This document shows positions 4,456 to 25,288 of a DNA stretch of 32,000 nucleotides, in pieces (the first letter of the stretch is position 1; the number at the start of each line of letters is the position of its first letter). The notes beneath the pieces are model-generated. The model worked only from the letters and a program-made list of their open reading frames with translations. It did not search any database and was not told where the DNA came from. This stretch comes from Sulfolobus acidocaldarius DSM 639. Lineage in GTDB: Archaea > Thermoproteota > Thermoprotei_A > Sulfolobales > Sulfolobaceae. The position numbers were made by a program, and so were the translations under genes. The DNA lies in the NCBI RefSeq assembly GCF_000012285.1, contig NC_007181.1:900001-932000 (forward strand), written 5' to 3'.

Positions 4456-5214
4456 TTAAGCAATTCCTCTTTTTATACTTTCCCCTGCATCTACGACAAA
4501 TACCTGACCTGTTAATCCTTCTATCTTAAGTATAGCTGTGACAAACTCCGCAATATCCTCTGGTTCCAGCATTTTACCCATTAAGGTTGTTTTCTCCACG
4601 AATTCCTTCTCACTCATGTTCAGTAATTTATACATACTCTCTCCCAACTTTGTCTTAACCCATCCCGGAGCTATAGCATTGACCCTTATTTTAGGAGCTA
4701 ATTCAAGTGCCATGTATTTGGTCAGACTTATCACTGCTCCTTTCATTGCACCATACATCGAGAGACCATAAGCTGGTAAAACTCCTGCTATTGAGGCTAT
4801 ATTTACTATTTCTCCTCCTTCTCTCATCTCCCTTGCAAATGCTTGAGAACAATATACTACAGACTTGAAGTCTACAGAAATGTGTTTTTCAATTAGTTTA
4901 TCATCTGCGTTCATGAATAGCGAGAAAAGTCCTAATCCAGCATTGTTTACTAATATGTCCACAACTCCAAATTTGTCAAGGGTGGATTTTAGAAGTGTTT
5001 CGCAACCTTCCTTGGTTCCCACATCAGCTAAAACTCCTACAGCATCTCCACCGATTTTCTTAACCATTTCCACGGTCTCATTAACTTCTTCTGCCCTCTT
5101 CTTGGCATTTACTACTATTTTGCTACCCTCTTGGGCTAACCTTAACGCTATAGCTCTACCTATACCTCTACCAGAACCAGTCACAACGACTACTTTGTCT
5201 TTAAGAGAGTACAT
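4456..5214 (-). CDS. SDR family 3-oxoacyl-(CoA/ACP) reductase, FabG-like
   Basis: VVVTGSGRGIGRAIALRLAQEG matches TGxxxGxG. NNAG motif present. YGAMK gives YxxxK. Length is 252 aa, typical of classical SDRs. Confidence 0.75.
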   Translation of the reverse strand: MYSLKDKVVVVTGSGRGIGRAIALRLAQEGSKIVVNAKKRAEEVNETVEMVKKIGGDAVGVLADVGTKEGCETLLKSTLDKFGVVDILVNNAGLGLFSLFMNADDKLIEKHISVDFKSVVYCSQAFAREMREGGEIVNIASIAGVLPAYGLSMYGAMKGAVISLTKYMALELAPKIRVNAIAPGWVKTKLGESMYKLLNMSEKEFVEKTTLMGKMLEPEDIAEFVTAILKIEGLTGQVFVVDAGESIKRGIA

Positions 5215-5215
5215 A

Positions 5216-5230
5216 AATTACATTATGAGT
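5216..5230 (-). promoter_or_regulatory. ACTCATAATGTAATT box between TATA and the start codon of the FabG-like SDR gene (candidate TetR/FadR site)
   Basis: The minus strand reads aaatttatttatgaagACTCATAATGTAATTATG. It matches 12/15 to the box at 13031-13045, in the same position relative to TATA and ATG. Confidence 0.35.
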
Positions 5231-5292
5231 CTTCATAAATAAATTTTATTAATCAAAAAGATACTGAAAAATGTCCAGCAACAATGTTTCTT

Positions 5293-6213
5293 TTACTTAA
5301 AAATGTCCTTAAGTAGTGCCCCAATCATCACTGTCACTTGACGTGAAGTCCTTGGTGAACCCAAAAATGCATGAACATTGCCATTTACTCTAAAACTTAA
5401 TGTTGGGACACCAGATTCCATGAGCCTATAGGCATAAGCTTCTCCTTGATCCCTCAAAGGATCGTACTCTGCAGTAACGACTATAGCCTGAGGTAAGTTA
5501 GATAAGTCCTCTGCAATTAAGGGTGAAAATAATGGATTGTATAAATCTTTCTCATCTCTTATATACATTTTAACGCCGTAATCTACTGGCAAATTGATGT
5601 CAAGAAAGTACCCTTTCCTGTATCTGTTCATTGATTTTGACGCAAGATCGAGGTATACAAAAGGAACTACAGGTACTTGTGCAGTCAATTTCAATTTATT
5701 GTCTCTAGCCAACAGTGAAGTAGCAGCAACCAAATTACCTCCAGCACTTATTCCAAATGTGGCAATCTTATCCTTATCAATACCAAGTTCTCCCGCATTA
5801 TCCCTTGCCCACACTATAGCATTGAAACAATCATAGACTGCGGTTGGAAATTTATATTCAGGCGCAAGTCTGTAGTCAACCGATATGACTGTGCACTCGC
5901 AGGAGTTTGAGAGAATTCTTGAGATAGCATCTTCAGTCTCTATACTCCCTAATATCCACGCTCCTCCATGAAAGTGCATTACCAGTCCGTTGTTGGTCCT
6001 TTTAATGGGTGAATATATTCTGATGGGCAGCTCATAATCCTCTAACTTTATTTTCATATCTCTAGTTTCTCCCACAGGATCCTTTGGCACCGCCTTTGCC
6101 AACAATTCATTTACTTTTTGTCTAATTTCCTGGAACTGATATTTGGTGAAATCTATTATGTTAGCCTTATAATAAACTTGAAGGAAATTCCTCACTTCAG
6201 GATCCAACGGCAT
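5293..6213 (-). CDS. Carboxylesterase, hormone-sensitive-lipase (HSL, alpha/beta-hydrolase fold-3) family
   Basis: HFHGGAW is an HGG oxyanion motif variant. GISAGGNL is the GxSxG nucleophile elbow. C-terminal DPLRDQGEAYA and H(A/G)F match HSL family members. It is a paralog of 19178..20095. No N-terminal signal peptide is evident. Confidence 0.85.
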   Translation of the reverse strand: MPLDPEVRNFLQVYYKANIIDFTKYQFQEIRQKVNELLAKAVPKDPVGETRDMKIKLEDYELPIRIYSPIKRTNNGLVMHFHGGAWILGSIETEDAISRILSNSCECTVISVDYRLAPEYKFPTAVYDCFNAIVWARDNAGELGIDKDKIATFGISAGGNLVAATSLLARDNKLKLTAQVPVVPFVYLDLASKSMNRYRKGYFLDINLPVDYGVKMYIRDEKDLYNPLFSPLIAEDLSNLPQAIVVTAEYDPLRDQGEAYAYRLMESGVPTLSFRVNGNVHAFLGSPRTSRQVTVMIGALLKDIFK

Positions 6214-6266
6214 AACATTTAGTTTTAGTTGATAGCATAAAAAATTAATCTAAATAATTAACTTAC

Positions 6267-7436
6267 CTACCTAATTTGTGTCTTATAAACCCTTGAGTAT
6301 ATTGCTGATACCACAGGAATGGATACATCAACTTTACAGTGGGAACCATTGTAGACGTCCAGATGACCATATTTCTCTAAAAGTATCATACTATAAGGAC
6401 GATTTCCAGGGAAGGGATTATTGCTCAGCCTACCTGCTGATAATCCAAAGCCACTTATTATATCTAGGATAGGTAAGGATATTTTGCTGTACATGTTGTC
6501 AAAATCATACTTTAGATAGGGGCATTCCTTCCAGTCTAACATTGTCTGAGTTTCAAGGTATATCCTTATTGGCCAATATCTGTCAAAGGTGGACATTGTA
6601 TGTACTAACACTCTCGGATCATTATACCCTGCATATACGTTTGTTAGTAATCCCGGACCCCAACCGCTATAGAGAGTAAAAGTTGCCCATTCCAATATGT
6701 TATTCCATTTTTCACCTGTAATTGGATTGATTCTAGGTTCAAGAGGCTCTCCCGTTACAGGGTTTGTCGGTGGTGCATTAGGATTCTTATCGATATATTT
6801 AAAGAGGAAGAGAGCCCCCTTAGTACCTCCAACTTCCATTGCCCAACTCTTCGTATTCTTGATTTTCTCTAAGAGACCGTCAAAATCAAGAGAATTAGTA
6901 GGTTGCCTTAGAATAGGTCCTCCATCGAGTAAAATTAGACTCTCCAAGTCCTCAGGGAATAGAGTTGCAAAATTTACTGTAGCTAATCCTCCAAAACTTT
7001 CACCAGCTAAGAAGACCCTTTTAAAGGAAGATATCTCTTTAATAAACTCTACAACCTCCTTAATGTCATTTATCCATTGCTCCCATCCCCAATCAACCAT
7101 AAAGCCGAATTCACTCGGATCTTTCTCAGGAGACAGGAAGTGAGTCCTATAATCCATTAAATAAACATCAATGCATCTATTAGCCCAAAAGAAAGGCTCA
7201 TCAATGTCTTCATTTCTCTTCCAATCATCATCTACCGTATTAGCAGATAACTGTTCACCACTACTCCATGTTCCTGGGAGTATTAGGAGAGAGGCTATGG
7301 GTTTACATTCCTCCTTGATTAGCCTATGAACACCAATAATCCCTGAGGGTGGCGTTTTAGACTCCTTCGTCCAATAATAGTGTTTTAAACTAGGATAATC
7401 TTTACATTTGTACTCTTGTCTCAAATTCCATGTCAT
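6267..7436 (-). CDS. Alpha/beta hydrolase, lipase-like
   Basis: VFLAGESFGG is a GxSxG nucleophile elbow. Preceded by LILPGTWSSG. 389 aa, no obvious signal peptide. Sits next to the esterase and divergent from the TetR regulator. Confidence 0.65.
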   Translation of the reverse strand: MTWNLRQEYKCKDYPSLKHYYWTKESKTPPSGIIGVHRLIKEECKPIASLLILPGTWSSGEQLSANTVDDDWKRNEDIDEPFFWANRCIDVYLMDYRTHFLSPEKDPSEFGFMVDWGWEQWINDIKEVVEFIKEISSFKRVFLAGESFGGLATVNFATLFPEDLESLILLDGGPILRQPTNSLDFDGLLEKIKNTKSWAMEVGGTKGALFLFKYIDKNPNAPPTNPVTGEPLEPRINPITGEKWNNILEWATFTLYSGWGPGLLTNVYAGYNDPRVLVHTMSTFDRYWPIRIYLETQTMLDWKECPYLKYDFDNMYSKISLPILDIISGFGLSAGRLSNNPFPGNRPYSMILLEKYGHLDVYNGSHCKVDVSIPVVSAIYSRVYKTQIR

Positions 7437-7474
7437 AATTAAATTATGCTCCGGCTTGTTTATATTTCTTGATT

Positions 7475-7602
7475 AAAATTAAACTATTTGATTTATCAAA
7501 TGTATTTGTGTAAATAATTTTTCTTCACTCCAAATCCTATTAGGAAAGCTGACACTGAACCGACCTTTTAACTACAATGATAGTCGACTCAAAAATCAAG
7601 TA
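7475..7602 (+). repeat. Copy A of a duplicated promoter-operator module (its last 40 bp, 7563..7602, are identical to 8022..8061)
   Basis: Three collinear identical blocks are shared with copy B: aaaattaaactatttg (7475-7490 / 7918-7933), aatgtatttgtgtaaataat (7499-7518 / 7952-7971), and the 40-mer accttttaactacaatgatagtcgactcaaaaatcaagta (7563-7602 / 8022-8061). Confidence 0.9.
7582..7601 (+). promoter_or_regulatory. Candidate TetR operator, copy A: AGTCGACT palindrome plus ACTCAAAAATCAAGT box
   Basis: Perfect 8-bp palindrome AGTCGACT at 7582-7589, overlapping an ACT-N9-AGT dyad at 7587-7601. Further (A)GTCGA(C) cores lie at 7609-7614 and 7788-7794. Confidence 0.45.
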
Positions 7603-7917
7603 TAATATAGTCGAAATATGCCCTCTTGAATAAAACCATGAAATATAAATGAGTCTATTCTGATCTGATAAAGTTCAAACGTGCCATATTTCCTCGCGGA
7701 TTTGCTTGCTGTATTACACGTAAGCTTTTCACTTTAAATGGCAAATGATGTTGCTAGCTTCTTCCAGGTCTTCTCCTTTTAAAGAGAAGTCGACGTAGAG
7801 CCTCTAAATAAGCCTTTTGACATTAAATTATAAAATGTGGAGAGCCTCGCCCTTTAGAGTGTGGAAGAAGTCAGTGGCACAGTTCTCTTCGTTTAAGCTT
7901 TTTTGTATCTCTTCATC

Positions 7918-8061
7918 AAAATTAAACTATTTGTTTTATTCATTATATCTTAATGTATTTGTGTAAATAATCTTCTTTATTCTAATCAATAAAATTATCG
8001 GAGAAGTTTATTATCGAGTTTACCTTTTAACTACAATGATAGTCGACTCAAAAATCAAGTA
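7918..8061 (+). repeat. Copy B of the duplicated promoter-operator module, ending 11 nt before the TetR regulator start codon
   Basis: Same three identical blocks as copy A, offset by 459 bp for the 40-mer. Contains TTTTAA (8025-8030) as a candidate TATA box and the AGTCGACT palindrome. Confidence 0.9.
8041..8060 (+). promoter_or_regulatory. Candidate autoregulatory TetR operator in the regulator promoter: AGTCGACT palindrome plus ACTCAAAAATCAAGT box
   Basis: Palindrome at 8041-8048 and ACT-N9-AGT dyad at 8046-8060. They lie between the TATA-like TTTTAA (8025-8030) and the start codon (8073/8076), a position suited to promoter occlusion. The SD-like GGTGGTG lies just downstream. Confidence 0.55.
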
Positions 8062-8072
8062 GTAAAGGTGGT

Positions 8073-8663
8073 GTGATGTATAGGGCTCCTAAAACAGAAA
8101 AGGGAAAGGAATCACTAAATAAAATACTTGATGCCTCTGTTGAGCTAATTGCTGATAAGGGTTTTCTAAGCACTAGTATAAACGATATTACAAGTAAGGC
8201 TGGAGTTGCTTATGGTCTTTTCTACTTTTACTTTAAGAGTAAGCATGACATTTTAGATGAGATAATAAGGCAGTTTAACAGAAATATGAGATATTATTTG
8301 AAAACATATACACAGAACCTAGACAGTAGGATTGATGTGGAAAAAGTAGGAATGAAGAAATTCTTGGAGTGGATGAACGAGAACAAGAAGTATTATAAGA
8401 TATTCATTGAAACACAAGTCCATAGACCTGATATATATAAGTGGCACTTCATGAAGCTAGCCGAGAGATATACTACGGGTCTTTCTGAGGCAATGAGGAG
8501 GGGTGAGATAATAAATGTAGACCCTGAGTTACTGTCTTACGTTTTAATCGGTATAGCCCATATGCTTGGTAAAAGGTACGTCTTGTGGAGTAACTCTGGG
8601 CTTACATTAAAACAACAGAGAGACTTGGACTTAATTATAGAAAATATGTTAACACCAAGGTAA
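8073..8663 (+). CDS. fadR: TetR-family transcriptional regulator (acyl-CoA-responsive FadR-like)
   Basis: The N-terminal HTH is typical of TetR (LDASVELIADKGFLSTSINDITSKAGVAYGLFYFYFKSKHDIL), followed by a ~140-aa ligand domain. The gene is embedded in a beta-oxidation cluster. The start is GTG 8073 or the adjacent ATG 8076. Confidence 0.8.
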   Translation: MMYRAPKTEKGKESLNKILDASVELIADKGFLSTSINDITSKAGVAYGLFYFYFKSKHDILDEIIRQFNRNMRYYLKTYTQNLDSRIDVEKVGMKKFLEWMNENKKYYKIFIETQVHRPDIYKWHFMKLAERYTTGLSEAMRRGEIINVDPELLSYVLIGIAHMLGKRYVLWSNSGLTLKQQRDLDLIIENMLTPR

Positions 8664-8826
8664 TTGCCATTTGTTTTGTCTATATACATAATAACTTCTT
8701 ATTTTTTGAGGTCTTCCTCCTATTCCCATTTTCGCTACTTTCTACTTTACATGAAGGGAACGCAAAAGTTCTAGGTTTTATATTTTTCATTAATTAGTGA
8801 TGTTGGTTTTCAAAAAAGATTATATA

Positions 8827-8836
8827 TTAGATCTAA
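8827..8836. promoter_or_regulatory. 10-bp perfect palindrome TTAGATCTAA abutting the TATA box of the acyl-CoA dehydrogenase gene
   Basis: TATA ttatatat at 8820-8827 lies ~26 nt upstream of ATG 8850 (leaderless geometry). The palindrome occupies the TATA-to-start interval. Confidence 0.3.
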
Positions 8837-8849
8837 AGTAATTCAGTAT

Positions 8850-9971
8850 ATGGGCGAAGAAGATAAAGAGTTAGAGGAGTATAGGAATAAGGTCAGAGAG
8901 TGGATTCGCAAGAACGTACCTGAAGAGATAAAGGAAAAGGGAGATATGGCACCAGTTGAGGTCTTAAAGAGCTGGCAGAGGAAAATATATGAGGCAGGCT
9001 ATCTTGGTGTCTCATGGCCTAAGGAATATGGTGGTTGGGGAGATAGTCCCATAAAGGAGATTATTGTTAGAGAGGAATTCGCTAAAGCAGGAGTTCCTTA
9101 CGCTACGATAGGTTTAGGAGTATCGGTCACAGGTCCTGCAATTTTGAACAACGGAAATGAAGAGCAGAAGAAAAAACACATAAGGAGAATCCTTACAGCG
9201 GAAGATATATGGTGTCAAGGGTTTTCTGAACCCCACGCAGGATCAGATTTAGCTTCAATCAGAACCAAGATAGAGGATAAGGGAGATCATTATGAAGTAA
9301 ATGGGCAGAAGATATGGAGTAGTTATGCCCATCTGGCTAATTACTGTCTCCTATTAGGGAGGACAGGAGACCCCTCTGAAAGGCACAAAGGGCTGACAAT
9401 ACTCATAGTAGATATGAGAAGCGAGGGGATAAAAGTTAGCCCTATTAAGCAGATAACTGGAAGATCAGAGTTTAACACGGTATACTTCAATCAAGTAAAG
9501 GTGCCTAAGGAAAATGTTGTAGGTAAGGTAGGAGAAGGATGGAGAGTGGCTATGTCCACACTGAATTACGAAAGACTAAACATAGGTACAATACTATTTG
9601 GAGTCGAGAGGATAATCAGAGATCTTGTGAACACTGGTTATAAGGGAGAATCCTTAATTAATACAGCTGAAGATATAATTGCGCTGAAAGCCTTTTACAA
9701 GAGAATACTAGAGAGAATGAAAAAGGGATATATAGCTGGTCCAGAGGCTGCCATGATCAAGTTAGTAGCTTCTGAGTCAATGCAAAAAGTCTATGAGAGT
9801 GCATTCAATACCATGGGTCCGGAAGCTCTAGTGGTAGAACGTAAACCTGGTTTCAGACCTGAAATAGTTTATGGACTATTAGCTTCAAGGTCAATTACTA
9901 TTGCAGGAGGAACGTCGGAAATATTAAGAAACCTGCTTGGAGAGGTCGTACTAGGATTACCTAAAGGATAA
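8850..9971 (+). CDS. Acyl-CoA dehydrogenase (FadE-like subfamily with IAGGTSE in place of the YEGT catalytic-Glu motif)
   Basis: FSEPHAGSD is the FAD/substrate motif (TEPxAGSD-like). GEGWRVAMSTLNYER and C-terminal IAGGTSEILRN are also present. 373 aa. Confidence 0.8.
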   Translation: MGEEDKELEEYRNKVREWIRKNVPEEIKEKGDMAPVEVLKSWQRKIYEAGYLGVSWPKEYGGWGDSPIKEIIVREEFAKAGVPYATIGLGVSVTGPAILNNGNEEQKKKHIRRILTAEDIWCQGFSEPHAGSDLASIRTKIEDKGDHYEVNGQKIWSSYAHLANYCLLLGRTGDPSERHKGLTILIVDMRSEGIKVSPIKQITGRSEFNTVYFNQVKVPKENVVGKVGEGWRVAMSTLNYERLNIGTILFGVERIIRDLVNTGYKGESLINTAEDIIALKAFYKRILERMKKGYIAGPEAAMIKLVASESMQKVYESAFNTMGPEALVVERKPGFRPEIVYGLLASRSITIAGGTSEILRNLLGEVVLGLPKG

Positions 9972-9996
9972 CGATGTACACAAGGAACTAGATAAC

Positions 9997-10012
9997 AAAA
10001 AACATGTTTTTT
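9997..10012. terminator. Bidirectional T-tract terminator palindrome AAAAAACATGTTTTTT between convergent genes
   Basis: A perfect 16-bp palindrome gives a T6 tract on both strands, placed between the stop at 9971 (+) and the stop at 10065 (-). Confidence 0.6.
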
Positions 10013-10064
10013 ATTCCTTACACTTTCTTTTGTACTTAAGGAGAGAGATAAAAAATAATCTCAT

Positions 10065-12056
10065 TTATTCTCCTTTGAACTGTGGCTTTCTCCTCTCTAG
10101 GAAAGCCCTTACTCCTTCTTTTACATCCTCTGTTGTGAATAACAGTCCGAATAAGGCAGACTCTAATTCCTGTCCAGTCCATATATTAGCCTCATAACCT
10201 AACTCCACAGCTAATTTGGCAGCTAATAATGATAACGGCGACTTTTCTGCAATCTTCAATGCCACTCTCCTAACTTCCTCCTCAAATTTGTTTGCCGGAA
10301 CGACCTGATCAACTAGTCCCATTTTATATGCCTCTTCCGCAGGGATCATATCACCGGTGTAAATAAGTAACTTCGCTCTTCCTTTACCTATTAGTCTTGG
10401 AAGTCTTTGTGTACCACCGGCCCCTGGAATTATTCCGATATTGATCTCAGGCTGACCTAACTGGGCTAAATTAGAGGCTATTCTGATGTCGCACGCCATT
10501 GCCAACTCAAGTCCTCCGCCTAGGGCGAACCCATTTATAGCAGCGATAACTGGCTTAGTATAAAGTTGAATCTTGTAGATGACGTTTTTCATATACCTGT
10601 ATCTCACAACATCAATTGGTCTCAGTGTAGTAAATGACGTTACGTCAGCACCTGCAGAAAATGCTCTACCATTACCAGTGATAATTACCACTCGGACGTC
10701 ATTATTGAACTCCAACTCGTCCAAAACCTTGTCCAGTTCACCCATTAATTCTTGGCTTAACGCGTTAAGTCTCTCTGGTCTATTTAAGACTATCCAGGCT
10801 AAGGGAGGCTCAACTCTAAGTATTAAGGTTTTTAGTGTCTTTTGTTGAATCTTCCCGTACTCAAAGAATCCTGAGCCTGACTTCATTCCCACTTTGCCTT
10901 GAGAAACCATCTCTGTCAACAGGGGATCTGGATCGAATGAACTTATTCCTGTTAATTTCTTTAACTCTGACAATGAATTCACAATGTTATCTATTCCCAC
11001 CTCATCGGCTAATTTCAGTATACCTTTCTGGAATCCTAGACCAAGGACTGTACCTAAGTCTACATCCTCCTTACTGGCTATATTCTCCCTCACTAATCTA
11101 GCGGCTTCATTTACTGCTGGCGCAATAATTAAAGCTGGGTTTAACTTCTCTGCCAACTCCTTAGGTAATTCAGGCTTGACGTACTTACCTGGACCTGGAT
11201 AGGTGTAGAATCCCTTTCCACTTTTAACACCCAACTCATTGTTCTTGAACTTTTCAACTATTAGTGAGCAGATTGGTATATCGTCTTTCACTCCCAGTTC
11301 TTCCCTTGATTTTGAAATGTAATATGCAACATCTATACCAGTGTAATCTAGGAGTTCAAAAACTCCCATTGGGAAGCCTAGTTTGTATCTTGCAACAGCA
11401 TCGACTTCTTTTATGTCAGCAAGCTTCTTCTCAACTACTATACACGATGCGATATTTATTCCTCCTAAAATCCTGTTTACAACGTATCCAGGAATATCTT
11501 TGTTTATCATTATAGGCTGCTTCCCTAATTTCTTTGCTAACTCATATGTCACCTTTGCGGTCTCGTCGCTGGTTTTGTCGCCCTTCATTACTTCAACTAG
11601 GGGCATAAGTGCAGGGGGATTAAAGTAATGCATTCCAACTACCTTATCAGGTCTCTTTGTAGCCTCAGCTATTTTGGAAACTGGTAGACTACTGGTATTA
11701 GTTGCTAGTATTGCATGAGGTGGTAATAGCTCGTCTAATTTTGCAAATGTCTGTCTCTTTACATCTATTTTCTCTGTTATCGCTTCAATGGAAAAATCAG
11801 CATCACTGACAGTCTTATCTAGTCCAACTACAGGTCTTATTCTCTGCAGTACTGTCTCTACGTCCTCCTTTATTGTCCCTCTTTCCTTTAACTTTGTAAG
11901 ACTCCATTTGACTTTGTCCATTGCACTATTTAATATATCTTGAGAGACATCACTTAGATATACTTGATAACCTGCTATGGCTGCTAGTTCCGCTATACCG
12001 TGACCCATAGTTCCTGCTCCGATGACGAGTATTTTCTTAATATCTTCTACTTTCAT
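10065..12056 (-). CDS. Bifunctional 3-hydroxyacyl-CoA dehydrogenase (N-terminal) / enoyl-CoA hydratase (C-terminal)
   Basis: N-terminal Rossmann motif VIGAGTMGHGIAELAA followed by the HCDH C-terminal domain. The C-terminal ~250 aa are a crotonase fold (ITGNGRAFSAGADV, GGGLELAMACD). 663 aa. Confidence 0.9.
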   Translation of the reverse strand: MKVEDIKKILVIGAGTMGHGIAELAAIAGYQVYLSDVSQDILNSAMDKVKWSLTKLKERGTIKEDVETVLQRIRPVVGLDKTVSDADFSIEAITEKIDVKRQTFAKLDELLPPHAILATNTSSLPVSKIAEATKRPDKVVGMHYFNPPALMPLVEVMKGDKTSDETAKVTYELAKKLGKQPIMINKDIPGYVVNRILGGINIASCIVVEKKLADIKEVDAVARYKLGFPMGVFELLDYTGIDVAYYISKSREELGVKDDIPICSLIVEKFKNNELGVKSGKGFYTYPGPGKYVKPELPKELAEKLNPALIIAPAVNEAARLVRENIASKEDVDLGTVLGLGFQKGILKLADEVGIDNIVNSLSELKKLTGISSFDPDPLLTEMVSQGKVGMKSGSGFFEYGKIQQKTLKTLILRVEPPLAWIVLNRPERLNALSQELMGELDKVLDELEFNNDVRVVIITGNGRAFSAGADVTSFTTLRPIDVVRYRYMKNVIYKIQLYTKPVIAAINGFALGGGLELAMACDIRIASNLAQLGQPEINIGIIPGAGGTQRLPRLIGKGRAKLLIYTGDMIPAEEAYKMGLVDQVVPANKFEEEVRRVALKIAEKSPLSLLAAKLAVELGYEANIWTGQELESALFGLLFTTEDVKEGVRAFLERRKPQFKGE

Positions 12057-12101
12057 AGAGTAGTATAAAATTAAAGGGTTAATAAATGATATCCATTCCG
12101 A

Positions 12102-13022: not shown

Positions 13023-13030
13023 AGTTCAAG

Positions 13031-13045
13031 AATTTGATTTTGAGT
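13031..13045 (-). promoter_or_regulatory. ACTCAAAATCAAATT box between TATA and the start codon of the MBL-fold gene (candidate TetR/FadR site)
   Basis: The minus strand reads cttatataACTCAAAATCAAATTcttgaactATG. It matches 13/14 to the regulator-promoter box after a 1-nt gap. Confidence 0.4.
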
Positions 13046-14812: not shown

Positions 14813-14825
14813 ACGATCTAAAGAA

Positions 14826-16871: not shown

Positions 16872-16906
16872 TCTCCCGGTTTAAATTATTATAAGAGGTT
16901 AAAACA

Positions 16907-18094
16907 ATGCTACAAGAAGTATATTTGGTAGATTTCGCTAGAACTCCTTTCACAAGGTTTACTAGAAAGGAACCACAAAAAGATCCTTTTTATAATTTGA
17001 GACCAGAGGAGTTAGCAGGCATAGTTATAAACAGGTTAATAGAAAAGAACGGGATAAACCCTAGAGAAATAGAGGAGATAGTTACAGGATGTGCTCTGCA
17101 AGTAGGTGAACAGTGGAGCTTCGGAGGAAGACATGAAGTATTTGCGTCCAGATTACCTTATACCATACCATCAATGGCAGTGGATAGACAGTGTGCTTCC
17201 TCAATAACAACTGTTGCAATAGGAGCAATGGAAGTAGCTACGGGTATGGCAGACATCGTATTAGCGGGAGGAGTAGAGAAAATGTCAAAAACTCCCATGT
17301 TTGACAACCCACACATAGAGCCTAACATGGCTTTTCTAACTGACCCAAAATACGCTGAGTATGACCTCACAACTGGTTATGTTATGGGTTTAACAGCAGA
17401 GAGACTGGCTGAGGAGGCAAAGATATCCAGGGAAGAGATGGACAGATGGTCACTAAGAAGTCATCAGATGGCTACTAAAGCCATTCAAGAGGGCTATTTC
17501 AAAGACGAGATAATACCCTTCGAAACTGAAGTGGAAGGAAAGAAAATTACGCTGACTACTGATCAGTCTGTGAGACCAGACACAAGTTTAGAGAAGTTAT
17601 CTCAATTACCTCCAGCATTTAGACCAAATGGTACAATTACAGCAGGCAATTCAGCTCCTCTGAACTCCGGTTCAGCATATGTACTACTCATGTCTAAGAA
17701 CGCATTAAAGAGGTATGGATTAACACCAATGGCTAAAATCAGGAGTTTCGGATTTGCAGGAGTTCCTCCAGCGGTAATGGGCAAAGGTCCAGTCCCCTCC
17801 TCTAAAAAGGCTTTAGAAAAGGCTAACTTGAATGTAAAGGACATCTCGTTGTGGGAAATAAATGAAGCTTTCGCTGTAGTAGTACTAAACGCTATCAAGG
17901 AATTGGGATTAGATGAGAGCACAGTTAATAAGAGAGGTGGAGCTATAGCCATAGGTCACCCATTAGGTGCAACAGGAGCTAGAATAGTTGGGACATTAGC
18001 TAGGCAACTATTGATTGAAGGAAAGGACTACGGTGTTGCTACGCTCTGTGTAGGAGGAGGACAGGGAGGAGCAATTGTAGTGGAAAGAGTATAA
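16907..18094 (+). CDS. Acetyl-CoA C-acyltransferase (3-ketoacyl-CoA thiolase, FadA/thiolase-I/II type)
   Basis: VDRQCASS is the active-site Cys. NEAFA, GHPLGATGAR and CVGGGQG are thiolase signatures. 395 aa. Confidence 0.9.
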   Translation: MLQEVYLVDFARTPFTRFTRKEPQKDPFYNLRPEELAGIVINRLIEKNGINPREIEEIVTGCALQVGEQWSFGGRHEVFASRLPYTIPSMAVDRQCASSITTVAIGAMEVATGMADIVLAGGVEKMSKTPMFDNPHIEPNMAFLTDPKYAEYDLTTGYVMGLTAERLAEEAKISREEMDRWSLRSHQMATKAIQEGYFKDEIIPFETEVEGKKITLTTDQSVRPDTSLEKLSQLPPAFRPNGTITAGNSAPLNSGSAYVLLMSKNALKRYGLTPMAKIRSFGFAGVPPAVMGKGPVPSSKKALEKANLNVKDISLWEINEAFAVVVLNAIKELGLDESTVNKRGGAIAIGHPLGATGARIVGTLARQLLIEGKDYGVATLCVGGGQGGAIVVERV

Positions 18095-18101
18095 AAAGAA
18101 G

Positions 18102-18115
18102 TTTTTCTATTTTTC
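18102..18115 (+). terminator. T-tract terminator (TTTTTCTATTTTTC) after the thiolase gene
   Basis: A T-rich run follows the stop at 18094, between convergent genes. Confidence 0.45.
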
Positions 18116-18124
18116 CTCACTATT

Positions 18125-19132
18125 TTATGGCTTTATAAGAATTTTACCATGTCTTTTTCTGTCCTTCAACATATCTAAAGCCTTATCAAAATCCTCTATT
18201 GATACCTCACCACCTATAACTGGCGTAATCTTATTTTGCCTAACCATCTCCAATGTGTCCACTATGTCCTTCTTTGTAGCCCCGGCATGTCCAATTAACT
18301 CAACATTCTTTAGGACTAAGTAACCTAGCCTTAGACTGAAATTGACAGAGGGATCAATATTCCCTACTTGTACTATCTTACCACCTATTTTCAGTGACCT
18401 CATACTCTCATCAAGAGTAGGACCTCCTACATTGTCCACTACTATTGAAGGTTCTCCAAATCCCTTTCTAACCTCTTCAGCAAACTTGTTCCCAACTACC
18501 ACGTAATCTGAAAATTTTCCAACGATCTTAGCCTTACTCTCTTCACTTGTTACTCCTACTACTTTTGCTCCTAAAGCTTTAGCAACCTGAAGGGCATGAA
18601 TACCAACACCACCTCCTGCACCAGTCACTAAAACTATATCCCCCTGCTTTACATTAGCTCTCTTAAGCCCTCTGTAAATCATTGCAGCAACACAGGGAAC
18701 TACTACAGCCCCTTCATCTGAAACTCCAGGAGGGACTTTAACAAGAGAGTTTGCTTTCACAAGTATTCTCTCTGCGAAAAATCCGTCAAGCTCCTGTGCA
18801 TAGAGTTGTCTGTTGTTACAATATATCTCTTCTCCCATCTTACAGTTGTCACAAGTCCAATCTGGAACGTAAAGTAGTGAGGTCACAATATCACCCTTTT
18901 TGAATCCCTCAACACCTTCTCCAACTTCCTCAATTTCTCCTACCATCTCATGCCCCAATATAAGAGGGTATTTTGAGCGGGGATAAAATCCTTGGATCTG
19001 AAGAAGGTCTCTATAACATAGTGCTGCTTTCCTTAACTTTACCACAACTTCTGATTTACCTGCCTTTGGCTCTTGCACGTTTTTATCTATTTTATAACCT
19101 TGTTTAAAACCTGGAAGAATTACAGCTTTCAT
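18125..19132 (-). CDS. Zinc-type medium-chain dehydrogenase/reductase (alcohol dehydrogenase / enoyl-thioester reductase-like)
   Basis: GHEMVGEIEEVGEGV is the catalytic Zn motif. CDNCKMGEEIYC is the structural Zn loop. VLVTGAGGGVGIHALQVAK is the NAD(P) binding motif. 335 aa. Confidence 0.75.
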   Translation of the reverse strand: MKAVILPGFKQGYKIDKNVQEPKAGKSEVVVKLRKAALCYRDLLQIQGFYPRSKYPLILGHEMVGEIEEVGEGVEGFKKGDIVTSLLYVPDWTCDNCKMGEEIYCNNRQLYAQELDGFFAERILVKANSLVKVPPGVSDEGAVVVPCVAAMIYRGLKRANVKQGDIVLVTGAGGGVGIHALQVAKALGAKVVGVTSEESKAKIVGKFSDYVVVGNKFAEEVRKGFGEPSIVVDNVGGPTLDESMRSLKIGGKIVQVGNIDPSVNFSLRLGYLVLKNVELIGHAGATKKDIVDTLEMVRQNKITPVIGGEVSIEDFDKALDMLKDRKRHGKILIKP

Positions 19133-19177
19133 AGTTCAATTAAATATAAACAAACAAAAATAATTAAAATTTTGTAT

Positions 19178-20095
19178 TCAAAAACTGTTGTAGAATACTC
19201 GTCTCAGTGTTGCCCCTATTAGACCAATTGCGTCCATACCCTGAGGTATTAAGGGGAAGAAGGAGACGAAGCCATGGATTACGTTATTAAACCTGACACT
19301 AGTGACAGGTATGCCTGCCATTAATAGTTTATTAGCGTAAGCCTCTCCTTGATCTCTAAGAGGATCATACTCAGCAGTTATTATCAAAGCTGGAGGTAGT
19401 CCAGTGAGATCCTGATTCAGTATTGGTGAAAATTTAATGTCGAGTAAGTCCATGTAAGATCTTAGGTACTGAGAGCCGAACCACTCAATTTGTTCCCTTG
19501 TAAGGAAGTACCCATCATAGTACTCTACCATTGACCTTGATGTGTAGTCTGCACCAGTAGCTGGGTAGATTAACACCTGATGTTTCAGGTTAATTTTACC
19601 TTTAGTCAGAATTGATACTACAGCAGATAAGTTTCCTCCAGCACTGTCTCCGCCGACTGCGACACCTTGCTTACCCTCTAGGCTTTCCGCATTTTCATAG
19701 ATCCACTTTGTGGCATCCACAGAGTCGACAACAGCAGATGGGAATTTATTCTCAGGTGCTAGTCTGTAATCTATAGACGCTACAACGCAGTTACACGCGT
19801 TGGTTATTGCCCTACAAACTGGGTCATATGATTCAATATCTCCTATAACAAATCCTCCACCATGAAGATACACTAGTATTCCATAAGGTCCCTTTGTCTT
19901 GGGATAATAGACCCTGGCTGGAATCATGGTCTCTGTCCCAGGTATCTTTATGTCCTCAATATTTCCCACATCCATCTTTGGAGCTGCAGAGGATATTTGG
20001 CGGAATACCTTTCTCACTTCATCTACAGGTACCTTACCTATTGGTATTACAAAACCAGACTCTAAAAGTTTCTTTATGGTTGGATCTAAAGGCAT
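19178..20095 (-). CDS. Carboxylesterase, HSL family (paralog of 5293..6213)
   Basis: YLHGGGF is the HGGG motif and GDSAGGNL the GDSAG motif. ITAEYDPLRDQGEAYA is identical to the other esterase. HGF is present. 305 aa. Confidence 0.85.
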   Translation of the reverse strand: MPLDPTIKKLLESGFVIPIGKVPVDEVRKVFRQISSAAPKMDVGNIEDIKIPGTETMIPARVYYPKTKGPYGILVYLHGGGFVIGDIESYDPVCRAITNACNCVVASIDYRLAPENKFPSAVVDSVDATKWIYENAESLEGKQGVAVGGDSAGGNLSAVVSILTKGKINLKHQVLIYPATGADYTSRSMVEYYDGYFLTREQIEWFGSQYLRSYMDLLDIKFSPILNQDLTGLPPALIITAEYDPLRDQGEAYANKLLMAGIPVTSVRFNNVIHGFVSFFPLIPQGMDAIGLIGATLRRVFYNSF

Positions 20096-20170
20096 AATCT
20101 ATTTATACATTAGAAATAAATAAACCTTCCTTTAGTTTATTTCGTTTCATAGTAAACTTTTGGCATTTCT

Positions 20171-21667
20171 CTATTCCATAGTCTCCACTTCTCTTGCCCA
20201 ACCAATAGTTCTCCTGACAGCTTCCTTCCACCCCTTATACAATCTCTCCCTTCTATCCTCCTGTAATGAAGGAATGAACTCCCTATCTACTGCCCATTTA
20301 CTCTTTAACTCTTCTAGGGAACTCCAATAGTCCACTGCTAAACCTGCAAGCATAGATGCACCCATTGATGTAGTCTCTATCACTCTAGGTCTAACAATCC
20401 TTATTCCCAATATGTCAGCCTGAAATTGCATTAACAAGTTATTTTTCGACACACCGCCATCTACCTTTAGGACATTTACAAATTCTTTTCCAACGTCTTT
20501 CTTAATTACCTCTATCACATCCCTAACCTGATATGCGATCGATTCCAAGACAGCCCTGGCTATATGTCCCCTACTTGTCCCTCTTGAAATTCCTATGATC
20601 AGACCCCTAGCATATGGATCCCAGTAGGGAGAACCTAAACCAGAAAATGCAGGGACAAAGTAAACTCCTCCGTTATCAACAACACTTGACGCAAGACTCT
20701 CGATTTCATCGGAACTACTTACTAAACCTAGTCCGTCCCTAACCCACTGAACTGCTGCACCGGTTGTGAATATGCTCCCTTCTAGTGCGTACTTTACGTC
20801 TTTACCGATTTTCCACGCAATGGTGGTAAGTAGGTCTTTTGAATCATATATCTCCTCTCCAGAGTTCATTAATATGAAACTCCCAGTACCATAAGTACAT
20901 TTCACATCTCCTTTACTGAATCCCAGTTGACCAAATAATGCAGCCTGTTGATCTCCAGCATCTCCGCTGATCGGTATATTTCCAACGGGCTCAGCGTATC
21001 CATACACTTCACTGGAGGACCTAACTTCAGGCAGTATTGCCTCTGGAATTTCTAGAATTTCTAGAATGTCCCTATCCCACTCCAACTTTTTTATATTAAA
21101 CAGCATTGTCCTAGATGCGTTAGAGTAGTCTGTAACATGGACTTTACCATTAGTGAGTTTCCAAATTAGATATGTGTCTACTGTGCCAAACTTTATTTCG
21201 CCCCTCTCTGCTTTTTCTCTTACACCTGGGACGTTATCAAGAATCCACTTAATCTTTGAAGCGCTAAAATAAGGGTCAGGGATTAAACCGGTCTTGCTCT
21301 TAAACAGGTTAAGGTAGTTTGATTTTAACCAGTCTGTTATATCCGAAGTCCTCCTATCCTGCCACACCACAGCATTGTAAACTGGTCTTCCACTCCTACT
21401 GTCCCACATTATGGTGGTCTCTCTCTGATTTGCTATACCAATAGCAGAAACCTGGCTAATCTCGATCTTGGCTTTCTCTACAGCTTTCTTTATCATACTT
21501 ACCTGCTTTTCAAATATTTCCTCAGGATTTTGCTCCACATAACCTGGTCTTGGGAAATACTGTGTCAGTTCAGTCTGTGCTATGCTTATGACGTTTAGGT
21601 CTTCATCGAAAACTAGAGCCCTTGCACTTGTAGTCCCCTCATCCACTGCCAATATGTATTTGGACAC
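20171..21667 (-). CDS. glpK: Glycerol kinase
   Basis: Full-length FGGY kinase with the canonical GlpK N-terminus ([18 protein letters not shown]), QRETTIMWD, and [13 protein letters not shown] start. 498 aa. Confidence 0.95.
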
Positions 21668-21760
21668 ATTAACTATTTTAAGAAACTTGGTATATAATTT
21701 TTATTTAATGATAACGTTTAAAACCAAAGAGTTTTATATCATTTCTTATACTATACTTTA

Positions 21761-23047
21761 ATGAAGCAAAACAGTTCAGTTATAGTAATTGGGGGAGGCG
21801 CCACTGGGTTATTCACAGCTTTAGATCTAAGTTTGAGGGGAATAAACGTTACTTTAGTAGAAAGAGGGGATATTGCGTCAGGGACATCGGGAAAATTCCA
21901 TGGTTTACTACATAGCGGAGCTAGATATGCGGTCAACGACCCTGAATCTGCCAAAGAGTGTAAACAGGAAAACGAAGTCCTGTCTAAGATAGCACCTGAG
22001 TTTGTAAGAGATACCGGAGGAGTTTTCGTGGGGATAACTGAGGACGATGTAAACTACTCACAGAGGTTTTTATCAGCCCTCAACAGTCTTGGAATCACTA
22101 ATAAAGTAATGGATGTTGAAGAACTCATCAGAAGAGAACCCTTCATAAATAAGAAGTCAAAAATAGCCATCTGGGTTCCAGATAAGGTGGTCTATGGTTA
22201 TGATCTACTGGCAACAGTGGCGTTAACAGCGTCTCTCAATGGTGCGAAAATTTTAACTTACAATGAAGTGAAGAGGGTCTTGAGAGAGGGTAACTCTGTC
22301 AGGAGAGTAGAGGTTAAGGACAACATTTCTGGTGAGACTAAAATCTTGAATGGAGATATTATAGTAAACACTGCAGGACCCTGGGCTTTTAGAGTAATTG
22401 AAATGGCTGGATTAGGAGAAATCCCTTTACTCCCCACAGCTGGAATAATGGTAGTCATGAAGGAAAAATTGAACAGTATGGTGATAAATAGGCTTAGACC
22501 CCCTTCAGACGGAGACATTATTGTACCTTATGGAGATTCATCCATAATTGGAACCACAGCAACCATTATTCCTGACCCTGACAATTTTGAAATATCTGAT
22601 GAAGACATAAACATGTTAATTGAGGAAGGGGCATACATGATTCCCAGGTTGAAGGAGGTAAAACCTGAAAGGGCATACGCGTCTGTTAGACCTCTGATTA
22701 AAAATGCAGAAGATGGGAGAGGGGCAACAAGGGATTTCATGATCATTGACCATGAAAAAGTGGATAGCTTAGACGGTTTGATCTCAGTCATCGGAGGTAA
22801 GTTTACCACTTCTAGACTAGCCGGTGAGAAAGTAAGTGATATGGTATCTGAAAAGCTAGGAATAAGGGAGAAAAGCAAGACAGCCACTATCAAACTCATG
22901 TCTGAACTAGATGAGAAACTCTTAGAAAAGAAGAGAGTACCTAAAGTATTGGTGAAGATGATACGTGAAAGGAAGGGGTCTCTTGACGAGGATAGGTACT
23001 CCACAGCAATGTATATCCTTTTGTCATTACTGGCGAGGGGGGAATAA
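21761..23047 (+). CDS. FAD-dependent glycerol-3-phosphate dehydrogenase (short GlpA/GlpD-like form)
   Basis: VIVIGGGATGLFTALDLSLRGINVTLVERGDIASGTSGKFHGLLHSGARY is the GlpA/GlpD N-terminal FAD signature. At 428 aa it has no long C-terminal domain. It is divergent from glpK. Confidence 0.8.
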   Translation: MKQNSSVIVIGGGATGLFTALDLSLRGINVTLVERGDIASGTSGKFHGLLHSGARYAVNDPESAKECKQENEVLSKIAPEFVRDTGGVFVGITEDDVNYSQRFLSALNSLGITNKVMDVEELIRREPFINKKSKIAIWVPDKVVYGYDLLATVALTASLNGAKILTYNEVKRVLREGNSVRRVEVKDNISGETKILNGDIIVNTAGPWAFRVIEMAGLGEIPLLPTAGIMVVMKEKLNSMVINRLRPPSDGDIIVPYGDSSIIGTTATIIPDPDNFEISDEDINMLIEEGAYMIPRLKEVKPERAYASVRPLIKNAEDGRGATRDFMIIDHEKVDSLDGLISVIGGKFTTSRLAGEKVSDMVSEKLGIREKSKTATIKLMSELDEKLLEKKRVPKVLVKMIRERKGSLDEDRYSTAMYILLSLLARGE

Positions 23048-23049
23048 TT

Positions 23050-23490
23050 ATGGAGATGAGTGGGAAGTTTCTTGTAGAAAAATCGGAGGAAAAGGTCAAG
23101 GAGTTATTGACAGACCCAAAAATGTTCTCCCAGTGCTTACCTGGAATTCAGAATTACGAGATATCTGGCGAATCATTTAAGGCTGTCTTCAAAATCGATG
23201 TAAGTGAGATGAGAATCCCACATATTACAACACTTACAGCATCCATTAACGCTACAATTACCACCGAGAGTAACAATCAGATACATATAAAAGGTAATGG
23301 TAGGTCTGCAGGAGTTAGTATAAAGATGGATATAGTTTTGGATTTAGGGTCTGAAGAAGGTAAAACTGCAGTAAAGTGGACAGCTATCTTAGATATGGGT
23401 ATGTTAACTAAGCTACTGGGCGAGTCCAATATAAGACAGATTGCAGAGTCTAATGTGAAAAGTATAATCTCCTGTCTTTCAAGAGTTTAA
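23050..23490 (+). CDS. CoxG-like SRPBCC-fold protein, probably a partner of the G3P dehydrogenase
   Basis: MSGKFLVEKSEEKVKELLTDPKMFSQCLPGIQNYE matches the CoxG-family N-terminal pattern (xDPxxxxxCxPG). It starts 2 nt after the G3PDH stop. 146 aa. Confidence 0.6.
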   Translation: MEMSGKFLVEKSEEKVKELLTDPKMFSQCLPGIQNYEISGESFKAVFKIDVSEMRIPHITTLTASINATITTESNNQIHIKGNGRSAGVSIKMDIVLDLGSEEGKTAVKWTAILDMGMLTKLLGESNIRQIAESNVKSIISCLSRV

Positions 23491-23561
23491 GTAAAAAAGG
23501 AGAAGAAAAGGAATTTTCGTTTTAAAACCTACACCGTCCAGCGAGAAAAACGAGGGAAAAA

Positions 23562-24095
23562 TCAGACTACATTGAAGACATAGGTTAAATATCCTTCAGG
23601 CTCCCTTCTTACTACTTCCAGTTTTACCTTAGATCCGACTTTCACATTATTTCCCTTTATCCAGCCCAAAACATTTACGCCATTACTAATCCTTACAATT
23701 CCCACAACGTAGTCACTGTAATGGGAAAAGGATGTGGGTTTAACATTAACCACAGTAAATGCTATAACTTCACCTTCCTTAGGCATCTCGATCCATTCGA
23801 GATTTGATACTCTGCATTTTGGACAGTCATCTTGCGGAGGGAAATATATGGTACCACACTTTTGACACTTTGTAGCAAGTAATTTCCCTTCCTTTAATCC
23901 TTCAAAGAATTTGGATACCTTCTTCACGGGAAACTGATAGCGTAAAGTAATTTCCCTTACTCCAACCCAAATTGGATTACCAGTCTTCTGGTCATTTACA
24001 ACAGGTAAACCTGTAGATTTAATCACATTGTCCAAGTTCTTGACATATGCTGAAATTTCTTTTTGGATCTTATCTCTGGTTTCGCTCACACTCAA
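23562..24095 (-). CDS. DUF35 (zinc-ribbon + OB-fold) protein, thiolase-associated
   Basis: CQKCGTIYFPPQDDCPKCR is a rubredoxin-like zinc ribbon, followed by an OB-fold region (GEVIAFTVV...). The non-ATG start (TTG 24095 or GTG 24089) overlaps the thiolase stop (TTGA). Confidence 0.8.
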   Translation of the reverse strand: MSVSETRDKIQKEISAYVKNLDNVIKSTGLPVVNDQKTGNPIWVGVREITLRYQFPVKKVSKFFEGLKEGKLLATKCQKCGTIYFPPQDDCPKCRVSNLEWIEMPKEGEVIAFTVVNVKPTSFSHYSDYVVGIVRISNGVNVLGWIKGNNVKVGSKVKLEVVRREPEGYLTYVFNVV

Positions 24096-25288
24096 CTTGA
24101 AGGCCTCCTGGTTGAGTATATTGTTATGTATGCGTAGTGTCCTGTTCCTCCTACGTTGTGTGTTATTCCCATCCCGTTCCTTATGTCTGCCTGTGTGCCT
24201 TTATGTGCCCTGTATAGTAGTTGTCTTGTTATTGACACTGCCATGCTTACTCCTGTTGCCCCTATTGGGTGTCCTTTAGCCTTTAAACCACCATCAACGT
24301 TTACTGGTATTTTTCCACCAATATATGTCTCACCATTCCTAGCCATCAAGTGTCCTTCTCCCCTCTTTGCAAACCCTAAGTCCTCATATGCCATTATCTC
24401 AGCTATTGTGAAACAGTCATGTACATCTGCAACATCAAAATACCTCCATGCATCACTGAAATCAATTTTAGCCCTCTTATAAGCCTCTTTTGCTGCCACA
24501 TATGATGCCTCTATACCTGTGAAATCTGTCCTTCTGCTTAGATTAGCAGTTCCACTTGCTACTCCCTGAGATACTATCCATACTGGTGAGTCTGTTATCT
24601 TTCTGGCTACTTCCTCAGAGGCTAAAATAAGTGCAGCTGCACCATCAGTTATTGGTGAAGAATCCAGTAGTTTTAAGGGTTGGGCTACAGGTTTAGACTT
24701 CAAGTATTCTTCCATTGTTATTTCCTTCTGGAATTGAGCATAAGGATTCCTTGCACCGTAGTAATGGTTCTTCACAGCAACACTACCTAAATCCTCTTCT
24801 TTCATTCCGTATTTAGCCATATAAGCACTTGCATATAGTGCATAGTAACCTGGGAATGTTAAACCGAAGTTTTCAAATTCCCAGAAGTAGTTCCCTGCCC
24901 TTCCTATAAGTTCTATTACTTGAGGGTTAGGGGATTGACTCATCTGTTCTACTCCTACAACCAGAGCAACATCTATTTCTCCAGCTTTAATTGCTTGGTA
25001 AGCGTCTCTTATGGCAGCACTCCCTGTTGCACATGCAGCTTCAACCCTCATGGTCCCCTTGGGTGTTAAATCACAATACTCTCCGACCACTACAGCTGGT
25101 AGTTCTTCCGCACTCCACATTCCGACATTTCCGACTACAAAGTACTGAATGTCCTTCTGTTCAAGATTAGCTTCTTCTAAGGCTTGTTTTACAGCTTCCC
25201 ATGCTAACTCTTGCATACTTACGTCGTTTCTTACCCCGAACTTTGAATGTCCTGTTCCAACAATTGCCACGTTTCTCATGAATCTCAC
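24092..25288 (-). CDS. Thiolase-superfamily condensing enzyme (archaeal/SCP-x type acetyl-CoA acyltransferase)
   Basis: VAIVGTGHSKFG and VEAACATGSAAI (active-site Cys), with C-terminal GHPIGATG and NVGGTG. The start is GTG 25288 (GTGA overlap with the ACS stop) or ATG 25279, which is preceded by SD-like GTGAG. Confidence 0.8.
   Translation of the reverse strand: MRFMRNVAIVGTGHSKFGVRNDVSMQELAWEAVKQALEEANLEQKDIQYFVVGNVGMWSAEELPAVVVGEYCDLTPKGTMRVEAACATGSAAIRDAYQAIKAGEIDVALVVGVEQMSQSPNPQVIELIGRAGNYFWEFENFGLTFPGYYALYASAYMAKYGMKEEDLGSVAVKNHYYGARNPYAQFQKEITMEEYLKSKPVAQPLKLLDSSPITDGAAALILASEEVARKITDSPVWIVSQGVASGTANLSRRTDFTGIEASYVAAKEAYKRAKIDFSDAWRYFDVADVHDCFTIAEIMAYEDLGFAKRGEGHLMARNGETYIGGKIPVNVDGGLKAKGHPIGATGVSMAVSITRQLLYRAHKGTQADIRNGMGITHNVGGTGHYAYITIYSTRRPSS

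Follow-up and report, generated by a model that had tools for sequence, protein, structure and literature searches.

The FadR-regulated gene cluster of Sulfolobus acidocaldarius very probably encodes three out of four enzyme functions in a described fatty acid synthesis pathway that works without acyl carrier protein

Introduction

Archaeal fatty acid synthesis without an acyl carrier protein (ACP) matters for the ‘lipid divide’ and for the question of how fatty acids could arise in an archaeal ancestor of eukaryotes. Such synthesis was reportedly predicted by Lombard and colleagues in 2012 and by Dibrova and colleagues in 2014, both of which Wang et al. list among their references. An experimental case has since been made in Sulfolobus acidocaldarius (Schmerling et al., July 2024; bioRxiv 10.1101/2024.07.05.601840) with a gene set that later papers already cite, and a 2026 review of membrane biogenesis (PMC13691511) mentions neither this preprint nor DUF35. 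The significance for the lipid divide belongs to these published predictions and to that experiment. Here we examine a window of 32,000 nucleotides (nt), positions 900001–932000 of the complete, single-contig genome of S. acidocaldarius DSM 639 (2,225,959 bp, 100% completeness), which contains the FadR-regulated gene cluster saci_1103–1126. We find that four of the five genes of the described ACP-independent, coenzyme A (CoA)-dependent pathway, and with them three of its four enzyme functions, very probably lie in this window.

The pathway as published (Schmerling et al., 2024) uses a beta-ketothiolase (KT), Saci_1121, which forms an alpha2beta2 complex with the DUF35 protein Saci_1120; a ketoacyl-CoA reductase (ACR), Saci_1104, strictly specific for NADPH and for the (R)-configuration; a MaoC-type (R)-hydroxyacyl-CoA dehydratase, Saci_1085; and an NADPH-specific enoyl-CoA reductase (ECR), Saci_1115, which accepts C4–C10 substrates and prefers C8. 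Combined, the four activities turned acetyl-CoA into hexanoyl-CoA in vitro, and KT/DUF35, ACR and MaoC co-eluted as a stable complex. Cells made 13C-labelled C8:0 and C10:0, and a saci_1115 deletion lowered these by 60%. The beta-oxidation enzymes Saci_1123, Saci_1109 and Saci_1114 did not support synthesis (Schmerling et al., 2024).

A prediction made earlier from the letters of the window (hereafter the original prediction) had proposed a CoA-based, ACP-independent elongation route among its beta-oxidation genes, and had suspected that such a pathway was already described in S. acidocaldarius. That idea is correct, already known and not new: the genes are, by primer match, those of Schmerling et al. 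(2024), whose proteins carried out the reconstitution. What we add is the exact gene map on the window and genome-wide confirmation that carrier-protein machinery is absent; the new elements are contextual only, namely the beta-oxidation synteny of the KT/DUF35 clade, named paralogues and a corrected thiolase start codon.

Results

Identity of the window genes

The analysis presented here establishes which genes these are, what domains and motifs they encode, that ACP machinery is lacking and where the dehydratase gene lies. Enzyme activities and specificities, the formation of the complex, the 13C label in fatty acids and the phenotype of the deletion are results of Schmerling et al. (2024). 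The numbering saci_1103 to saci_1126 corresponds to 24 open reading frames (ORFs) between positions 3047 and 31616 of the window (ORF list and Pfam annotation). The cluster is anchored by its regulator, residues 1–196 of 196 of which match PDB 6el2/6en8 with 434.9 bits; these entries are FadR_Sa of S. acidocaldarius DSM 639, the repressor of saci_1103–saci_1126 (Wang et al., 2019; PMC6449355).

Because published primers match their ends, the genes of interest can be equated with Saci_1104, Saci_1115 and Saci_1121/1120. We searched with the gene-specific parts of the primers in Table S3 of Schmerling et al. (2024), which gave zero matches in shuffled sequence. The saci_1104 forward primer has one exact match at the gene start (5197–5214, minus strand); each of the two saci_1115 primers has one, at the two ends of the gene (19114–19132 on the minus strand and 18125–18147 on the plus strand); and the saci_1121/1120 forward primer has one at 25261–25277 (minus strand). 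The computed masses of Saci_1104, Saci_1115 and Saci_1121 (27.1, 36.4 and 43.1 kDa) compare with 27, 36 and 43 kDa in the preprint. All four genes named in the original prediction lie on the minus strand with the domains attributed to them, as Pfam confirms; only the start of the thiolase has had to be moved.

The thiolase/DUF35 pair

The start codon of the thiolase is placed at ATG 25279 because the saci_1121 primer matches immediately within it. This cloned start gives a protein of 395 aa (43.1 kDa), compared with the GTG at 25288 of the mechanical ORF call, which lies three codons upstream and has its last two bases inside the saci_1122 stop codon. Saci_1121 carries a nucleophilic cysteine (Cys83 within AACATGS) and a catalytic histidine (His337 within GHPIG), and its nearest matches in the PDB are chain 7yvy_A and an archaeal thiolase, 6esq_A/6et9. 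The TTG start of saci_1120 overlaps the thiolase TGA stop by 2 nt and is preceded by GGAGG. The encoded protein has a zinc ribbon (zf-ChsH2, residues 64–100) with four cysteines (CQKC at 77, CPKC at 91), followed by an OB fold (OB_ChsH2_C, residues 101–161), and from residue 70 onwards it matches the DUF35 chain 6esq_E/6et9 of the Methanothermococcus thermolithotrophicus thiolase/3-hydroxy-3-methylglutaryl (HMG)-CoA synthase complex. The pair resembles this solved complex of the archaeal mevalonate pathway, in keeping with the original prediction.

Before its zinc ribbon, Saci_1120 has an N-terminal extension of about 60 residues. It is conserved in the genome's own paralogue, and the lengths of the matches suggest that this holds for most orthologous loci as well. 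The extension may provide a docking surface for the reductase and the dehydratase.

The two reductases and the dehydratase

Saci_1104 has the cofactor and catalytic motifs of a classical short-chain dehydrogenase/reductase (SDR): TGSGRGIG at 12, NNAG at 90 and YGAMK (YxxxK) at 154. Its best PDB matches are FabG 2uvd (full length, 152 bits) and 2et6, the (3R)-hydroxyacyl-CoA dehydrogenase domain of the yeast multifunctional enzyme. The arginine in TGSGRGIG and a basic NAKKR after beta2 appear consistent with NADPH use. The original prediction had called this protein a FabG-like NAD(P)H ketoacyl reductase, and the published activity bears this out, with the cofactor narrowed to NADPH.

A second SDR gene lies in the window at 2068–2793 (minus strand). 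Its product is 30% identical to Saci_1104. The gene shares 4 nt with the start of a FolB/HPPK fusion gene (1175–2071), and its role is probably in pterin metabolism, not in the lipid cluster.

In Saci_1115, a zinc-type medium-chain dehydrogenase/reductase (MDR), Cys39, His61 (within GHE) and Cys147 align with the catalytic zinc ligands of alcohol dehydrogenase (1rjw) and form a predicted zinc site, and three of the four cysteines of the structural zinc lobe are present (94, 97, 105). The top PDB match is 5k1s, deposited as an oxidoreductase of the zinc-binding dehydrogenase family (171.5 bits, full length, zinc-ligand positions in common); we take it to be Myxococcus xanthus AibC, an enzyme reducing 3,3-dimethylacrylyl-CoA to isovaleryl-CoA. 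The remaining matches are alcohol dehydrogenases, at 120–141 bits. That an MDR of the window could reduce enoyl-CoA had been proposed, and the published assays of Saci_1115 agree.

The dehydratase had been named as the only missing part, and it is indeed encoded outside the window. The genome has two MaoC genes, at 872975–873316 and 886257–886760 (MaoC_dehydratas match at 886404–886724, minus strand). The latter is saci_1085, an ORF of 167 aa that lies 13.2 kb before the window start and is matched by the saci_1085 forward primer (L002:1841–1854, minus strand). The reverse primer, its text taken from the supplement PDF, has no match in L002 even with three mismatches, which we treat as a transcription problem in that text or an effect of tag design, with no weight against the identity.

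In two genomes of one genus of the same order, a MaoC match 69–70% identical to Saci_1085 contains one in-frame TAG (G006:C8:39619–40092 and G017:C3:38364–38819). Possible causes are gene splitting, an error in sequencing and pseudogene formation.

Absence of ACP machinery

The Pfam annotation gives no ACP or ketoacyl-ACP synthase (KAS) gene among the ORFs of the window. The absence that the original prediction had noted for the window (no ACP, KAS III or carrier machinery) extends to the whole genome: PF00550 (PP-binding) and PF01648 (ACP synthase/phosphopantetheinyl transferase) have no match in the whole genome, with controls matched in 11 of 14 and 10 of 14 genomes, respectively. The sole ACP_syn_III_C match in the genome, at 1164279, adjoins a thiolase gene and a DUF35 gene; it is of the HMG-CoA-synthase type, in a mevalonate-type arrangement of three genes at about 1.1627–1.1645 Mb.

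Table 1. Genes of the window discussed in the text (window coordinates).
Gene	Product	Position	Strand	Evidence
Saci_1104	Classical SDR (FabG-like), published ketoacyl-CoA reductase (ACR)	4456..5214	-	adh_short 1.9e-51, primer match
Saci_1115	Zn-type MDR, published enoyl-CoA reductase (ECR)	18125..19132	-	ADH_N + ADH_zinc_N, both primers
Saci_1120	DUF35 scaffold protein	23562..24095	-	zf-ChsH2 + OB_ChsH2_C
Saci_1121	Archaeal-type (SCP2-like) beta-ketothiolase (KT)	24092..25279	-	Thiolase_N + Thiolase_C_1, primer match
Saci_1122	Acyl-CoA synthetase (FACS)	25285..26898	-	Pfam AMP-binding
Saci_1123	Acyl-CoA dehydrogenase (ACAD), published beta-oxidation enzyme	26934..28136	-	Acyl-CoA_dh N, M, C domains
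Saci_1107	FadR_Sa, TetR-family acyl-CoA-responsive repressor	8073..8663	+	match to PDB 6el2/6en8
Saci_1109	3-Hydroxyacyl-CoA dehydrogenase/enoyl-CoA hydratase (HCDH/ECH) fusion, beta-oxidation	10065..12056	-	3HCDH_N, 3HCDH, ECH_1
Saci_1114	Stand-alone beta-oxidation ketothiolase	16907..18094	+	Thiolase_N + Thiolase_C

Distribution and genomic company of the pathway genes

The company kept by the thiolase in other genomes was surveyed in 80 loci from other archaeal genomes, found with Saci_1121 as query (61–83% identity) and then searched with the window proteins. The loci come from Thermoproteota, Nitrososphaeria, Thermoplasmata, Archaeoglobi and Bathyarchaeia, and genes were counted as a chain when they lay on the same strand with gaps of at most 300 nt. 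A DUF35 gene of the Saci_1120 type follows the thiolase in 68 of the 80. An MDR gene stands inside the KT chain in four; within about 6 kb, no locus has a Saci_1104-like SDR and only one has a MaoC gene.

The four loci with an MDR (L056:5995–8242, L059, L065 and L068) are of a Calditenuaceae/Caldarchaeales type. Their thiolases are 63–64% identical to Saci_1121 and are followed after about 60 nt by the MDR gene instead of DUF35, in what looks like a compact KT–reductase unit set among housekeeping genes (tRNA methyltransferase, RNase HII, fibrillarin). With MDRs 38–41% identical to Saci_1115, these two-gene units are an independent genomic link between the thiolase clade and an ECR-type reductase, and they speak for the synthetic role of the thiolase.

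Among 60 other genomes sampled from the same order in the GTDB taxonomy, the thiolase clade (at least 62% identity) occurs in 17, close MaoC homologues in six, SDR homologues of at least 56% identity in four, and MDR homologues of at least 57% identity in five, with four more genomes at 40–42%. Close homologues of all four genes occur together in only four genomes (G035, G045, G049 and G059), a joint occurrence that counts in favour of the pathway, and 11 of the 17 KT-bearing genomes have no Saci_1104-like SDR (E ≤ 1e-40). All five genomes sampled from the same family have a Saci_1115 homologue of at least 59% identity. By these locus and genome counts, KT/DUF35 occurs far more widely than the anabolic partners, and the genes conserved around it are catabolic.

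RNA-library contigs from four runs in two studies were placed on 17800–28400 of the window, a comparison that can prove neither a single transcript nor strand nor expression level; they cover the interval fully and, as weak evidence, bridge the ACAD/FACS junction and, in all four runs, the FACS/KT junction.

The same contigs break in every run at 24108–24137, 24833–24862 and 25669–25696, inside the KT and FACS genes, and two runs contain short skips inside the thiolase (joints 24484>24570 and 24655>24765). Both features most likely reflect branching of the assembly graph where paralogues (the 85% identical thiolase and the acyl-CoA synthetases) interfere, not RNA processing.

Paralogues elsewhere in the genome

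The preprint states that another ECR must exist and counts seven KT/DUF35 pairs, unnamed in its main text (Schmerling et al., 2024). An MDR paralogue at 731144–732145 (within L004:7135–8148, genome 731,135–732,148) aligns with Saci_1115 along the full length at 57% identity. No lipid cluster surrounds it: a divergent amidase gene lies upstream and two ORFs without Pfam matches lie downstream. It is a candidate ‘other ECR’ of the kind that the deletion of saci_1115 implies. A thiolase paralogue at 2048878–2050059, 85% identical to Saci_1121, is followed by a DUF35 gene whose product is 53% identical to Saci_1120 (pair at 2,048,878–2,050,613). Together with the 57% MDR, this pair could account for residual synthesis in the deletion strain.

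The paralogous pair belongs to a second lipid island at 2,042,988–2,054,565 of the genome (L003:2988–14565), which partly mirrors the cluster of the window. The island encodes an MDR 34% identical to Saci_1115, a protein with an LplA/B-type lipoyl ligase domain, two acyl-CoA synthetases, a second HCDH/ECH fusion (divergent from the thiolase paralogue beside it), a protein resembling the ribonucleotide reductase R2 subunit and an alpha/beta hydrolase. A ligase of the LplA type near C8-producing enzymes hints at a link between octanoate and lipoate.

Discussion

A proposed elongation cycle

In the cycle that best explains these genes, Saci_1121, in its alpha2beta2 complex with Saci_1120, would condense acetyl-CoA with an acyl-CoA in a non-decarboxylative, thermodynamically uphill reaction. 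The resulting 3-ketoacyl-CoA would be reduced to (R)-3-hydroxyacyl-CoA by Saci_1104 with NADPH, and the enoyl-CoA would then be formed by Saci_1085. Its reduction by Saci_1115, again with NADPH, would be strongly exergonic and would pull the cycle forward. The published complex of KT/DUF35, ACR and MaoC probably channels their intermediates, and the specificity for (R)-intermediates and NADPH would keep synthesis apart from the neighbouring (S)- and NAD-dependent enzymes of beta-oxidation.

Synthesis or degradation

The following observations weigh against a mainly synthetic role. In the window, ACAD, FACS, KT and DUF35 (saci_1123-1122-1121-1120) form a tight run on one strand: 35 nt lie between ACAD and FACS, 5 nt between FACS and KT, and KT and DUF35 share the 2-nt stop/start overlap. 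Wang et al. (2019) regard the run as an operon for beta-oxidation whose own FadR operator precedes saci_1123, its first gene; they also show that the entire cluster is repressed by FadR until acyl-CoA lifts the repression, which is a catabolic logic. Elsewhere, the KT chain includes ACAD, HCDH/ECH or FACS in 20 of the 80 loci (for example KT-DUF35-ACAD-HCDH/ECH in L015, L050 and L077, and ACAD-FACS-KT-DUF35 in L006), and in none of the 80 is an SDR or MaoC gene chained to it. KT/DUF35 is reversible, with a Vmax of 3.6 U/mg for thiolysis and 0.85 U/mg for condensation, and its thiolysis is as efficient as that of Saci_1114; 40% of C8/C10 is left in the saci_1115 deletion, and fatty acids amount to only pmol per mg dry weight, on glycerol and not on D-xylose (Schmerling et al., 2024). 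That work is a preprint, and we found no peer-reviewed version in a search that left out most subscription journals. On this evidence, to which the rarity of the SDR in KT-bearing genomes and the place of the 85% paralogue beside a second HCDH/ECH can be added, KT/DUF35 might serve mainly as thiolase in a beta-oxidation operon conserved among archaea, and synthesis might be a minor or conditional side flux that S. acidocaldarius and a few relatives gained by acquiring SDR, MaoC and MDR. We regard this as rather unlikely, and it partly overlaps with the synthetic role that we favour, since the enzymes can work both ways. Against it, the Km of Saci_1121/1120 for acetyl-CoA is 150-fold lower, and its condensation efficiency 60-fold higher, than for Saci_1114; ACR and MaoC, both anabolic, join the pair in a stable complex; elongation works in vitro and deletion of the ECR gene lowers labelled fatty acids; and a dedicated beta-oxidation thiolase exists in Saci_1114, shown to work with Saci_1109. 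With KT/DUF35 beside beta-oxidation genes, its genomic context calls for caution about flux in vivo, and the original prediction was fair in saying that sequence alone cannot give its direction.

Two further explanations would leave SDR and MDR out of fatty acid synthesis, and both are rejected. Fatty acids could in principle arise by reversal of beta-oxidation through Saci_1114, Saci_1109 and Saci_1123 with electron transfer flavoprotein (ETF), the SDR and MDR being unrelated oxidoreductases. The window does encode every function of beta-oxidation, and partial reversal through Saci_1109 and Saci_1114 has been published for excess acetyl-CoA and NADH, but Saci_1123 could not be run reductively (ETF could not re-reduce it, and its oxidative direction is irreversible), Saci_1109 is (S)-specific and NAD-dependent, Saci_1114 has a poor Km for acetyl-CoA, and the SDR and MDR have been shown to act on CoA esters; contradicted by this published enzymology, the explanation is very improbable. 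Just as improbable is the view that the two reductases stand in the cluster by chance, the MDR as an ordinary zinc alcohol or aldehyde dehydrogenase and the SDR as an enzyme for non-CoA substrates. The MDR does keep the catalytic zinc ligands of the alcohol dehydrogenases that make up its lower PDB matches, and the substrate range of an SDR cannot be read from sequence, but reduction of enoyl-CoA and ketoacyl-CoA with NADPH has been measured on the purified proteins, with defined kinetics, C8/C10 fatty acids fall in the saci_1115 deletion, and the top PDB match of the MDR, 5k1s, is itself presumed to reduce an enoyl-CoA; the published assays contradict this view.

The synthetic and degradative associations of the thiolase might both have a place in one history, which we put forward tentatively as possible but doubtful. 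KT/DUF35 may ancestrally have been the thiolase of a beta-oxidation operon (ACAD-KT-DUF35 or KT-DUF35-ACAD-HCDH/ECH), recruited into an anabolic complex only in Sulfolobus and the few relatives with close homologues of Saci_1104, Saci_1085 and Saci_1115. The second KT/DUF35 pair and the 57% MDR would then serve as a backup that explains the 40% of C8/C10 remaining in the deletion strain.

Comparison with known systems

The closest described system is the S. acidocaldarius set of Schmerling et al. (2024), and it is the same: the locus is identical, and so are the genes, by primers, masses and numbering. The paralogues reported here, the 85%/53% KT/DUF35 pair and the 57% MDR, are not named in the main text of that work. 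For Saci_1115 taken singly, the closest solved relative is 5K1S, a bacterial enzyme that we presume to belong to a branched-chain pathway.

With bacterial type II fatty acid synthesis, the set shares the four-step chemistry, the (R)-3-hydroxy intermediate and the use of NADPH, and its SDR is a FabG homologue. The carrier differs, being ACP in bacteria and CoA in S. acidocaldarius, the genome of which has no ACP or ACP synthase. So do the other three enzymes: condensation is carried out by a non-decarboxylative thiolase without malonyl units rather than by decarboxylating enzymes of the KAS type (FabH/FabF), the dehydratase is a MaoC hotdog protein rather than FabZ/FabA, and the enoyl reductase is a zinc-type MDR rather than the SDR-type FabI. 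Neither ACP nor a KAS-type enzyme, FabZ/FabA or FabI belongs to the S. acidocaldarius set.

The thiolase and DUF35 protein have their nearest structural parallel in the mevalonate complex of M. thermolithotrophicus (6ESQ/6ET9). The genome's own mevalonate-type trio is separate from the KT/DUF35 pair, and its thiolase is only 28% identical to Saci_1121. The DUF35 protein of the methanococcal complex, at 130 aa, lacks the N-terminal extension of Saci_1120, and the partner there is HMG-CoA synthase, whereas in S. acidocaldarius the partners are the ketoacyl-CoA reductase and the MaoC dehydratase. In both systems, nevertheless, the gene of an SCP2-like archaeal thiolase is directly followed by that of a DUF35 protein with zinc ribbon and OB fold, and published work gives both an uphill Claisen condensation that is pulled by a bound downstream enzyme.

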